From contig CAZEWH010000006.1 in NCBI GenBank assembly GCA_964515785.1, forward strand, positions 4,182 through 58,720: a stretch of 54,539 nt of DNA, given 5' to 3'. The notes below the pieces were generated by a model. It saw only the letters and a program-made list of their open reading frames with translations, was not told where the DNA came from and did not search any database. This stretch comes from an uncultured Gammaproteobacteria bacterium (GTDB taxonomy: Bacteria > Patescibacteriota > Patescibacteriia > UBA1558 > GWA2-36-10). The position numbers were made by a program, and so were the translations under genes. Positions 18,984-21,838 of the stretch are shown here, in pieces. Each line of letters begins with the position of its first letter. Position 1 is the first letter of the stretch.

Positions 18984-19409
18984 TTAATAGCCTGAACTGC
19001 CAAAACTGCCAGCTCCTCGTTTAGTTTTATCTAACTCCTCTACTTCTTGCCATTCTATATCTTCTACTTTTTGAATAAGTAGTTGCGCAATACGATCACC
19101 TATTTTAATTTTATAATCCTCTTGCCCAAAATTAATAAGTACTATTTTATAGTCTCCCCTGTAATGCGAATCGACTACACCAGCCATAGTATGAATACCA
19201 TGCTTGATAGCTAGTCCAGAACGATCACGAATATTAGCAAAATAACCAGCTGGCACAGCAATTTGTAAACCAGTATTTACTAAAGCTCGTTCACCTGGCT
19301 TTATCACAACCTCTTCACAAGCGTGTAGATCTACGGCTGCATCACCTTCGCCATAAGCAGTGGCTGGAATAGTTGCTTGCGGATGATTTTTTTTAATCTT
19401 GAGTTTCAT
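18984..19409 (-). CDS. dut: Trimeric dUTPase
   Basis: Motifs AAVDL, RSGLA, GVVDSHYRG, GDRIAQL, RGAGSFGSSG. Confidence 0.93.
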   Translation of the reverse strand: MKLKIKKNHPQATIPATAYGEGDAAVDLHACEEVVIKPGERALVNTGLQIAVPAGYFANIRDRSGLAIKHGIHTMAGVVDSHYRGDYKIVLINFGQEDYKIKIGDRIAQLLIQKVEDIEWQEVEELDKTKRGAGSFGSSGY

Positions 19410-19893
19410 TAGGTTTTACTAATTCTAGGTATTTAAATTTAAGATCATTATACTCATGCTCTTCTTCAGATAAAATTTTGGAAAACTCTGTATATTCTGG
19501 AAAAAAAGTATCAGCTTCAAAAGTTTTGTCTATCAAAGTCAAATATAATTTATCTGCATATTTTATACTCTGCGCATAGATAGAGGCTCCACCAATAAAA
19601 AATATTTCATCGTCGTCAGAAGCTTTGGCATATTCTAAAGCTTCTTCTATAGAGTATTTGATCACGCAGCCTTCAGCTTTAAAATTTTTATCTTGAGTCA
19701 GCACAACATTTATTCTATTGGGAAGTGGTCTACCGATGGATTCAAAAGTAGTCTGACCCATGATAACCATATGGCCAGAAGTAATATTTTTGAAATGCTG
19801 CAAATCAGGCGGCAAATGGACTAGCAATTTATTTTTATATCCAATCCCGCGGTCGCGAGCTATAGCACAAATTATACTAATAGTTTTTTTCAT
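19393..19893 (-). CDS. folA: Dihydrofolate reductase
   Basis: IG..NKL...LPPDLQHFK, IMGQTTFESIGRPLPNR, IGGASIY, ADTFFP. Confidence 0.95.
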   Translation of the reverse strand: MKKTISIICAIARDRGIGYKNKLLVHLPPDLQHFKNITSGHMVIMGQTTFESIGRPLPNRINVVLTQDKNFKAEGCVIKYSIEEALEYAKASDDDEIFFIGGASIYAQSIKYADKLYLTLIDKTFEADTFFPEYTEFSKILSEEEHEYNDLKFKYLELVKPNETQD

Positions 19894-19895
19894 AT

Positions 19896-20807
19896 CTAAA
19901 CAGCTATCGGAGCTTTGATGCCCGGATGCGGATCATAATTTTCTAAAATAAAATCTTCAAACTTAAAATCATTGATATCTTTGATATCTGGATTAATCTT
20001 CATAGTTGGTAAAGCTCGAGGTGTACGAGCTAATTGTCTGTCTACTTGTTCTAGATGATTTTTATAAATATGGACATTACCAAAGGAAACAATAAATTCT
20101 CCTGACTTCAAACCAGTCACTTGAGCCAACATCATGGTCAATAATGAATAAGAAGCAATATCAAAGGGTACCCCCAAAAATACATCAGCACTACGCTGAT
20201 AAAGATGACAAGATAATTTGCCATCATGGATATAAAACTGAAAAAATGATGGACAAGGTGGCGGAGCTGTACGCTTGCCTTTGATCAAAGTCTGTAGTTC
20301 ACCGGTATTCCAAGCAGACACAATAATGCGGCGAGAAGTTGGATTATTCTTTATCTGATCAATTACAATCGCAATTTGATCAATCTCTCCTCCACCTGGA
20401 CCAAGCCAACGACGCCATTGTTTGCCATAGACTGGACCAAGTTCACCCCAATTTCTAGCAAAATCTGCATTGTCTTTTATTTTGTCTATAAACTCATCTT
20501 GGGATAAAAATTTCTTTTCGCCACGAGATTCCATGACTTCTTTATAAACAGCATAAGGCCAATCATCCCAAATATGAACATTATTTTGAACCAACCAGCG
20601 AATATTTGTCTCACCTCTTAGCATCCATAATAAATCATAAATAGCTCCTTTTAAGAAAACTTTCTTAGTGGTCACTAAAGGAAATTTTTCAGAAATATCA
20701 AAACGGAGCTGGCCACCAAAATAACTACGTGTACCTACTCCAGTACGGTCATCGCCATCATTACCTTCGTCTCTAATTTTTTTTAGTAAATCAAGATATT
20801 GTTTCAT
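19896..20807 (-). CDS. thyA: Thymidylate synthase (ThyA) homologue with altered pyrimidine pocket; candidate dCMP methyltransferase
   Basis: [22 protein letters not shown](185), QRSAD, HIY, C-terminal IAV; but D58, P186, D216 replace E58, H147, N177 (E. coli numbering). Confidence 0.9.
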
Positions 20808-20808
20808 C

Positions 20809-21354
20809 TTATTCTACTAGTTTATCTAATTGTTTATACAAATCTTCTAGACTGCCGTTGTTATCTATAGTCACATCAGCTTGCTTTAATAATTCTGGAA
20901 TATAAACCTCAGTTTCCAATTTATGATCAGCTTGAAACTGCTCCCATGTTTTACTAATATCATCAGCATTTTCTCCTCGTTTTTTTAAACGTTCAAAACG
21001 TATTTTACTATCTACTTCAACGCCAATCAACTGAAAACCTTCAATTTTTTTCAAAGCTTCTAAATCATAACTTCTCCTAACACCGTCAATAACTACTAAT
21101 TCACTTTCAGACTTGGCTGCATCATTGGCAATGACTTTAGAAAAAAGATTTTGCCCAAAAGCTTCTCGTAAAACTAAAGATATCTCTGCCATATTTTTTC
21201 GAGACTGTTCCAAATACAGCCTATCTAAAACATCCCTCATGGAAGTAGAAAAACGAAAAGATACAGCCTTGTGTTTCTCTATAAAATATTTGGCAGCTGT
21301 ACCCTTACCACTAGCAATCAAACCAGTAAAAGCTAAAATCTTTTTATTTGGCAT
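20809..21354 (-). CDS. P-loop nucleoside monophosphate kinase-like protein (dephospho-CoA kinase/dNMP kinase-like)
   Basis: [37 protein letters not shown]. Confidence 0.75.
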
Positions 21355-21838
21355 CGTTGTCTGTAATCACAAATTTTTTGGTAGGAGTGTACTTTTTGTA
21401 TTTGACTTGAGCCAAATCAAAAAGTTTTTTGGCAGCTACAGAATATTCTTCATTGATATACTTGTCATCAAAATAATAGACTTCTTTGATACCAGCTTGA
21501 ATAATAGTCTTGGCACATTCGTTGCAAGGGAATAAAGTACAATAAACTTTACCGCCTTTGACTGATTTGTTGGAGTTGTAGATAGCATTACGCTCAGCGT
21601 GGACTGTATAAGGATATTTGGTATAAGTCCAATCATCGGTTTCTTTGCCCCAAGGCAAATCATCAGTTTCTATTCCTCGTGGAAAACCATTGTAGCCCAA
21701 TCCCAAAATAACGTTGTTTTCATCGACTACCACTGCTCCAGTGCGGGTAGAAGGCTCTTTTGATCTTTCGGATATCAAAAAGGCCATCAGCATAAAGGTA
21801 TCGTTCCATGATAAAAAATCTTTTCTTGGTCCTGACAT
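21344..21838 (-). CDS. dCMP deaminase; probable start ATG 21838
   Basis: Zn motifs HAERNA and PCNECAK, GYNG, RSKEP..TGAVVV; ORF extension to 21919 overlaps the promoter. Confidence 0.92.
   Translation of the reverse strand: MSGPRKDFLSWNDTFMLMAFLISERSKEPSTRTGAVVVDENNVILGLGYNGFPRGIETDDLPWGKETDDWTYTKYPYTVHAERNAIYNSNKSVKGGKVYCTLFPCNECAKTIIQAGIKEVYYFDDKYINEEYSVAAKKLFDLAQVKYKKYTPTKKFVITDNDAK

Follow-up and report, generated by a model that had tools for sequence, protein, structure and literature searches.

In textbook accounts, cells complete de novo thymidylate synthesis by methylating deoxyuridine monophosphate (dUMP). Here we describe a thymidylate synthase (TS) homologue of the ThyA family in which the asparagine that recognizes uracil is replaced by aspartate and the histidine directly after the catalytic cysteine by proline. 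The gene lies on a 54,539-nt stretch of contig CAZEWH010000006.1 (hereafter the window, in whose coordinates all positions are given) from the genome of a tiny marine Parcubacteria. Both substitutions are fixed in one Parcubacteria clade, and published residue rules predict that an enzyme of this kind methylates deoxycytidine monophosphate (dCMP). We propose, with roughly even confidence, that this point-mutated ThyA supports a reversed route in the cell, in which dCMP would be methylated to 5-methyl-dCMP and then deaminated to thymidine monophosphate (dTMP).

An ordinary ThyA scaffold with an altered active site

The whole open reading frame (ORF) is covered by the model TIGR03284 (1.5e-123; 411.7 bits against a cut-off of 108.35) and scores 367 bits with PF00303. 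Solved TS structures align well, the best match being 6auj (3.9e-109), with E. coli 1aob at 1.1e-97 and L. casei entries matched over their full length. E. coli numbering, used below unless stated otherwise, was taken from the HMMER alignment to chain 1aob, in which residues 1–84 of the query correspond to E. coli 1–84 and E. coli positions for query residues 178 and onward are obtained by subtracting 39. The initial annotation of this DNA described four substitutions (N177D, H147P, E58D, and D205N), and both the sequence and the alignment place them at the codons it gave (Table 1). The catalytic cysteine (C185, equivalent to C146), R21, the SRR and YQRS motifs, D208 (D169, in RSAD), H246-I-Y248 (His207/Tyr209), and the C-terminal PIAV are all kept. 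Position 143 (Pro182 of the ORF) is the same as in canonical sister sequences and is not acidic. A 6-residue insertion ahead of the catalytic cysteine also occurs in canonical sisters and is, by this comparison, without relation to the active-site switch.

In TS, Asn177 pairs with O4 and N3-H of uracil and excludes dCMP, and to our knowledge it is treated as invariant in cellular ThyA. In engineered dCMP methylases, a second change, at His199 of the L. casei enzyme, reportedly improves the use of dCMP (Agarwalla et al., 1997). Twelve residues within 6 Å of C5 have been defined (PMC13326640, NAR 2026); the ten scored here, which are all except A142 and W80, match those of canonical sisters at every position but 147 and 177. 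Here and below, statements credited to PMC13326640, PMC8670742, PMC5175136, PMC12088426, and bioRxiv 10.1101/2024.12.05.627091 hold for the portions of these texts that were available.

Fixation in a Parcubacteria clade and origin in place

Conservation was scored over the best 120 database homologues, which comprise the nine closest sequences, all with Pro147 and Asp177 (hereafter P/D), and 111 canonical ones; clade counts (n = 10) include the window protein. Asp177 and Pro147 occur together in 10/10 members of one Parcubacteria clade and in 0/111 canonical homologues. At position 177 all ten clade members have Asp and all 111 canonical homologues Asn, and at position 147 the split is equally complete (Pro in 10/10 vs. 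His in 111/111). Position 162 is His throughout the clade (10/10) and Gln in 110/111 canonical homologues, and T202S is likewise fixed. Few columns are fixed across the clade while differing in 80% or more of the canonical sequences, namely F62M/I, H147P, Q162H, N177D, H201V/I, and T202S. Three other species genomes also carry the pair (G030, 77%; G010, 75%; G025, 71% identity). All of the other 26 ThyA genes from a set of 61 related genomes are of the canonical type.

The four substitutions had been presented as one signature. This holds for D177 and P147, which are clade-wide, but not for E58D and D205N: within the clade, D58 and N205 are found only in the window protein and in P0001, a distribution that places the two changes later, within the branch of the window protein. 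A further change in one of the quoted motifs, H57Y (HELLW to YDLLW), turns out to be plain polymorphism, with Tyr in 13/111 canonical homologues.

In a maximum-likelihood tree of 52 rows, the ten P/D sequences are monophyletic (Shimodaira–Hasegawa-like approximate likelihood ratio test, SH-aLRT, 99) and nested within a canonical Patescibacteria ThyA group (SH-aLRT 96), on a stem branch (0.13) that is no longer than neighbouring branches. The clade's nearest canonical relative is 71% identical, vs. 48% for the best viral Asp177 enzyme and 49.5% for the best Asp177 enzyme outside the Parcubacteria; a direct search of IMG/VR returned ten viral loci, the best of them 45% identical. Because the clade is nested in canonical ThyA and is far closer to it than to viral Asp177 enzymes, the active site must have been altered in place and not imported from a phage. 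Pairwise ratios of nonsynonymous to synonymous substitution rates (dN/dS) within the clade are 0.08–0.15, with dS saturated, and equal those between canonical sisters. The P/D clade is under purifying selection. The initial annotation had argued from the otherwise intact catalytic and binding residues that the gene is not in general decay, a view that the alignment and the dN/dS values bear out.

It had also allowed that the Asp and Pro might be sequencing errors absent from relatives, and the same residues are found in relatives and in contigs from two studies. The pair is shared with the nine closest database proteins (71–90% identity) as well as with the three further species genomes, and D58 together with N244 (ORF numbering) recurs in P0001 (90% identity). 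Logan contigs from runs of two studies show 0 differing letters over the four codons, at a low depth of 3–5x; runs X3, X6, and X7 span all four, and run X5 lacks 20113–20205. No RNA run is listed among those that contain the gene. In runs X3 and X7, further contigs, at about 20x depth, align with the gene over just two short conserved stretches (20340–20363 and 20787–20807), with 324 other letters between them, and probably come from the ThyA gene of a different organism that is more abundant in these samples.

Published residue rules and the predicted reaction

The MetaGPA study (PMC8670742, eLife) reports that N177D turns canonical TS from dUMP to dCMP, yielding 5-methyl-dCMP, and that, when TS homologues from cytosine-modified metavirome contigs are compared with those from unmodified ones, conservation differs most at positions 177 and 147. 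Mutagenesis cited also in PMC13326640 has N177D shifting the preference to dCMP. The Asp is conserved in T4 dCMP hydroxymethylase, MilA, and BcmA, and Asn in uracil-using enzymes (PMC5175136). As to the product, methylation is associated with a bulky hydrophobic residue at 143 and hydroxymethylation with an acidic one, and D169N marks 5-hydroxy-dCMP synthases (PMC13326640). Among Asp177 TS homologues of phages, 5/7 tested made 5-methyldeoxycytidine (5mdC) in vivo, and Asp177 TS genes were found in cis with dCMP-deaminase-family genes on 104/149 modified vs. 17/277 unmodified contigs (bioRxiv 10.1101/2024.12.05.627091). Two statements of the initial annotation, that Asn to Asp moves TS toward dCMP and that T4 dCMP hydroxymethylase has Asp at this position, agree with PMC8670742 and PMC5175136, respectively. 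With Asp177, a non-acidic residue at 143, and D169 kept, the published rules predict that the window enzyme is a dCMP methylase with a methyl product.

Under the proposed scheme, an ordinary Parcubacteria ThyA would have become a dCMP C5-methyltransferase dependent on methylenetetrahydrofolate through N177D and H147P, with Q162H and T202S. It would methylate dCMP to 5-methyl-dCMP and release dihydrofolate, which the co-operonic dihydrofolate reductase (DHFR) would recycle; a dihydrofolate-releasing methylase fits the position of the DHFR gene, 2 bases downstream. The co-operonic deaminase, of the type of human dCMP deaminase (DCTD), would then convert 5-methyl-dCMP to dTMP, and Tmk would phosphorylate dTMP to thymidine diphosphate (dTDP). 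The usual two steps, deamination and then methylation, would thus run in the opposite order. From sequence and context we infer that dCMP is the substrate, that a methyl group is added, and that deamination acts on the monophosphate. The swap would require only that the resident deaminase takes the methylated nucleotide, which makes a one-step transition plausible.

Thymidylate genes in this and related genomes

The genome (957,869 bases in 27 contigs, 98.4% complete) contains a single PF00303 match, the window ThyA gene. At this completeness it has no match to ThyX and none to thymidine kinase, and no dCTP deaminase was detected above the cut-off; it does carry ribonucleotide reductase, Tmk-like, and DHFR genes. 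As the sole TS-family gene of the genome, the ThyA-like enzyme must still yield a product that feeds dTMP, and with Tmk and DHFR kept and ThyX and thymidine kinase unmatched, the simplest scheme would be dCMP to 5-methyl-dCMP to dTMP to dTDP. Elsewhere in the genome, a short contig (C20:87-1052) encodes a C5 DNA cytosine methyltransferase (PF00145, 2.3e-95).

Among the 61 related genomes, ThyA is present in 35, ThyX in 25, both in 1, and neither in 2. De novo thymidylate synthesis is therefore the rule in the group, with ThyA or ThyX in 59/61 relatives. The two synthases are nearly mutually exclusive across the order, and ThyX often adjoins a deaminase gene.

Distribution of Asp177 enzymes beyond the clade

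One genome per species (185,579 species, with the window's own genome left out) was scanned for exact matches to a single degenerate 11-residue motif around Asp177, a design that misses Asp177 enzymes with other flanks. Eight stretches were recovered, from three Parcubacteria, one Nonomuraea, and four contigs of metagenome-assembled genomes (MAGs), and the same motif scan returned 38 viral contigs. Genes adjoining it on the MAG contigs have matches in phage families, namely DNA ligase, nucleotide pyrophosphohydrolases, and PHROGs of unknown function. Across these 46 Asp177 ORFs, Pro147 is confined to the three Parcubacteria and Nonomuraea, the other 42 having His, and Gln162 is present in one. 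Asp58 is unique to the window's branch, Glu being kept in the 46 other Asp177 ORFs and in all canonical homologues, while Asn205 is found in 9/38 viral Asp177 homologues and in 0 canonical homologues examined. A viral Asp177 clade combines Asn205 (‘VSNLHLY’) with ‘ELYC’ in place of ‘ELLW’ (L050, L052, L056, L059, L067, L073, L080, L081, and L084). Of the best 80 metagenome loci, 76 have His147 and Asn177, 0 are P/D, and 4 were unreadable by regular expression. A search of the PDB with a viral Asp177 homologue as query added nothing.

The ThyA homologue of Nonomuraea sp. (genome G061, L047:4843-5637; 48.5% identity) has the full Pro147/His162/Asp177/Ser202 set and adjoins Sulfotransfer_4 and glycosyltransferase genes. 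That genome encodes a separate ThyX and shows no match to a FolA-type DHFR. Thymidylate synthesis in this cell evidently does not fall to the P/D-type enzyme, as would be expected if such an active site does not methylate dUMP; the enzyme may serve in the making of a nucleoside natural product or in modification.

Operon organization and the neighbouring deaminase

The ThyA operon, on the minus strand, is tightly packed, with genes separated by 1–2 bases or overlapping (Table 1). Its order is YigZ-like, YgjP-like, dCMP deaminase, T4-gp1-like deoxynucleoside monophosphate (dNMP) kinase, ThyA, DHFR, dUTPase, and Tmk-like, followed by gatB; the deaminase gene lies one gene upstream of ThyA and overlaps the kinase gene by 11 bases. 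Other genes in the window include dnaE, thrS, guaB, miaB, miaA, mfd, smpB, infC, and gatA, and this content indicates a chromosomal setting. In genome G010, six tandem paralogous ORFs of 169–195 aa with a common C-terminal ‘LPDDLIV.G’-like motif lie between the P/D-type thyA and dhfr (L033:10460-13753).

Table 1 Genes of the ThyA operon and residues of the ThyA-family protein discussed in the text (window coordinates)
Feature	Position	Strand	Basis
ThyA-family gene, predicted dCMP C5-methyltransferase (5-methyl-dCMP synthase), 303 aa	19896..20807	-	TIGR03284, PDB alignments
Asp216 = E. coli N177 (PFDIASY), pyrimidine-specificity residue	20160..20162	-	codon GAT; HMMER alignment
Pro186 = E. coli H147 (PPCP), directly after catalytic Cys185	20250..20252	-	codon CCA; HMMER alignment
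His201 = E. coli Q162, clade-fixed Q to H, neighbouring stretch	20205..20207	-	codon CAT
Asp58 = E. coli E58 (YDLLW), sub-branch change	20634..20636	-	codon GAT; HMMER alignment
Asn244 = E. coli D205 (GNVH), sub-branch change	20076..20078	-	codon AAT; HMMER alignment
dCMP deaminase, eukaryote/DCTD type, 164 aa from ATG; proposed 5-methyl-dCMP to dTMP step	21344..21838	-	2w4l, PF00383, phrog_174
T4-gp1-like dNMP kinase, 181 aa	20809..21354	-	PF21448 DNMK 31.9 bits (cut-off 27.1); phrog_139 7.4e-22, full length
Dihydrofolate reductase, 166 aa, 2 bases downstream of thyA	19393..19893	-	DHFR family models E ~1e-35, under equivalog cut-offs
dUTP diphosphatase, 141 aa	18984..19409	-	TIGR00576 157 bits (cut-off 102.55)
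dTMP kinase-like protein, 225 aa	18294..18971	-	TIGR00041 80.3 bits, just below cut-off 83.25; NF005923 1.6e-30

The operon deaminase matches human DCTD (2w4l) at 4.7e-48, together with PF00383 and phrog_174. It contains the zinc motifs HAE (HAERNAI) and PCNEC (PCNECAK) and the allosteric motif GYNG. The allosteric motif of DCTD is given as G(Y/W)N(A/G), and DCTD is reported to be active on 5-methyl-dCMP (PMC12088426).

Two unrelated deaminase types occupy this one operon position: the nearest canonical sister genomes, G006, G017, and G048, carry an S. mutans-like type (L035:10979-11506, L037:10982-11482, and L038:11437-11955) that is 27–34% identical to the human-DCTD-like protein of the window (21344-21838) and has an extra Cys/His cluster. 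We considered this swap as proof of co-evolution with the P/D active site and rejected it. The DCTD-like type also stands beside canonical ThyA and ThyX, so the type of deaminase is not specific to the P/D clade. Clade-specific changes within the deaminase (an Arg after the catalytic Glu, W70, Y72, and others) were also set aside, since the grouping behind them was made post hoc, from an identity gap (73–92% vs. ≤64%) chosen after the data had been seen. The link of clade-type deaminases to P/D TS comes from G010/P0122 and from the 47,102-base contig of P0123/P0005 only. The one other deaminase-domain match in the window's own genome is a 422-aa protein on a 1434-base contig (C22; L039:85-1353), which combines an N-terminal CDA/TadA-like deaminase domain (PF00383, 5.5e-23) with a weak C-terminal methyltransferase-like match (PF08241, 1.1e-3).

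Weighing of alternative explanations

Several points weigh against the reversed route. The case is built wholly on residue rules from phage and engineered enzymes, and the P/D pattern amounts to one, at most two, evolutionary events. The Nonomuraea enzyme falls outside the P/D clade in the free tree, but the approximately unbiased (AU) test does not reject joining it (p = 0.169); independence was dropped as a claim on this account, and either convergence or transfer may lie behind the resemblance. Pro147 is without characterised precedent and, with His147 in all 38 viral Asp177 homologues found, is no known mark of dCMP methylases. The same gene order, including the deaminase position, dNMP kinase, and dUTPase, stands beside canonical ThyA in sister genomes, so operon context cannot tell the readings apart, and many relatives pair a DCTD-type deaminase of 54–65% identity with canonical ThyA or ThyX. 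If the enzyme were a strict dCMP methylase, the dUMP arising from dUTPase and from any deamination of dCMP would have no known consumer. None of the four P/D genomes has a ThyX match, a negative that is weak for G025 and G030 (69% and 84% complete), and G010 has a thymidine kinase within the operon.

It is possible, if on balance unlikely, that the enzyme remains a dUMP-methylating TS or is dual-specific, with Asp177 tolerated or protonated owing to H147P, Q162H, and T202S and with thymidylate formed by the route dCMP to dUMP to dTMP. A genome that needs dTMP and has one TS-family gene would be well served by such an enzyme; the operon is arranged as in canonical sisters, and its dUTPase and conventional DCTD-type deaminase would supply dUMP. 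The high overall identity to true TS (6auj, 3.9e-109) points the same way, and the combination of residues is uncharacterised, as Pro147 occurs in 0/38 viral Asp177 homologues. Set against this, Asn177 is invariant in the 111 canonical homologues, the 26 genes of relatives, and the 76 metagenome loci, and the cited mutagenesis has N177D moving preference to dCMP (PMC8670742 and PMC13326640). A damaging Asp kept over a clade depth of about 70% identity, despite being reversible by one transition, is hard to explain, and the Nonomuraea enzyme with the same site set coexists with ThyX. The initial annotation's central claim, a cellular TS-family enzyme making 5-methyl-dCMP, finds partial support in the residue rules, clade fixation, and selection, with retained dUMP activity as its main rival.

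An improbable variant would place an Xp12-like scheme in the cell: the gp1-like kinase would lead to 5-methyl-dCTP that enters the chromosome, partly or fully in place of C, and thymidine nucleotides would be formed by deaminating a share of the methylated nucleotides, perhaps as triphosphates. The adjacent and overlapping genes for deaminase, dNMP kinase, and Asp177 TS are in keeping with it, as are the reports that mSCD-B5, a phage deaminase of this family, uses 5mdCTP but not 5mdCMP and that T4 gp1 phosphorylates non-canonical pyrimidine dNMPs (both bioRxiv 10.1101/2024.12.05.627091). Yet the genome keeps Tmk despite having no thymidine kinase match, which suggests that dTMP is an intermediate; both the dNMP kinase and the operon are older than the switch; the operon lacks a nucleotide pyrophosphohydrolase of the kind found beside viral homologues; and the genome encodes a sequence-specific C5 DNA methyltransferase, which would make little sense on fully methylated DNA. 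GC and CpG observed/expected ratios are also alike in P/D and canonical loci. Base composition had been tried as a footprint of DNA containing 5-methylcytosine (5mC) and is uninformative (GC 34–37% at P/D vs. 33–40% at canonical loci, with overlapping CpG observed/expected). Slightly more doubtful still is a combined version, in which 5-methyl-dCMP would be the lineage's sole C5-methylated pyrimidine nucleotide and the source of all its thymidylate, with the kinase sending part of it to 5-methyl-dCTP, so that 5mC would be incorporated at replication and not by DNA methyltransferases.

It is highly improbable that the gene encodes, instead of a methylase, a dCMP hydroxymethylase or some other synthase that modifies C5. 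Asp177 is common to T4 dCMP hydroxymethylase and MilA (PMC5175136), but position 143 is Pro as in canonical sisters instead of the typical Asp/Glu, D169 is kept (rule in PMC13326640), and the C-terminus is intact; the DHFR gene 2 bases downstream would be needed only for reductive methyl transfer, and a hydroxymethyl product offers no route to dTMP. We give least credence to a decaying or mis-assembled ThyA without function. Four active-site substitutions in one enzyme from a low-depth metagenome assembly could suggest it, but contigs from two studies carry the same letters, relatives share the residues, dN/dS is 0.08–0.15, the frame is intact, and the other catalytic residues are all kept.

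Relation to known systems and implications

The window enzyme shares with canonical ThyA (EC 2.1.1.45, E. coli and L. casei) full-length matches to TIGR03284 and solved structures, the catalytic Cys, phosphate-binding Arg residues, Asp169, the His/Tyr pair, C-terminal closure, and a thyA-dhfr operon. It differs in Asp177 and Pro147, positions that never vary in the canonical homologues examined, and in E58D/D205N on its own branch. Engineered TS variants (N177D in E. coli, N229D in L. casei; cited in PMC8670742 and PMC13326640) have the same Asn to Asp change in an ordinary TS scaffold, whereas the enzyme described here is natural and clade-fixed, with extra fixed changes at 147, 162, and 202. 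T4 gp42 dCMP hydroxymethylase and the cytidine monophosphate (CMP) hydroxymethylase MilA share the TS fold and Asp at the position equivalent to 177 (PMC5175136), but they have an acidic residue at 143 and do not oxidize folate, in contrast to Pro143 and the adjacent DHFR gene seen here.

Closest in overall logic are the dCMP methylases of Xp12-type phages, for which formation of thymidine nucleotides by deamination of 5mdC nucleotides has been proposed, with mSCD-B5 acting on the triphosphate (bioRxiv 10.1101/2024.12.05.627091). They too have Asp177, a non-acidic 143, and adjoining genes for a dCMP-deaminase-family protein and a dNMP kinase. Unlike them, the window gene is chromosomal, syntenic with canonical sisters, and near gatB, mfd, dnaE, and thrS, and it encodes the sole TS of a cell; its product has Pro147, vs. 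His in the 38 viral homologues, and no close viral relative, and the partner deaminase is human-DCTD-like with GYNG. A literature search, with supplements and most subscription papers outside its scope, found no cellular ThyA with Asp177 and no description of a cellular methylate-then-deaminate route, which has so far been proposed only for Xp12-type phages.

If the reversed route is confirmed, it would be the first cellular case in which dCMP is methylated and then deaminated. An essential two-step pathway would have swapped its order by one or two point mutations, with the partner deaminase already accepting the methylated intermediate. The two enzymes, a dCMP methylase and its partner deaminase, would also offer a natural and compact means of producing 5-methyl-dC nucleotides, and they raise the question of whether 5mC is incorporated at replication in some ultra-small bacteria.

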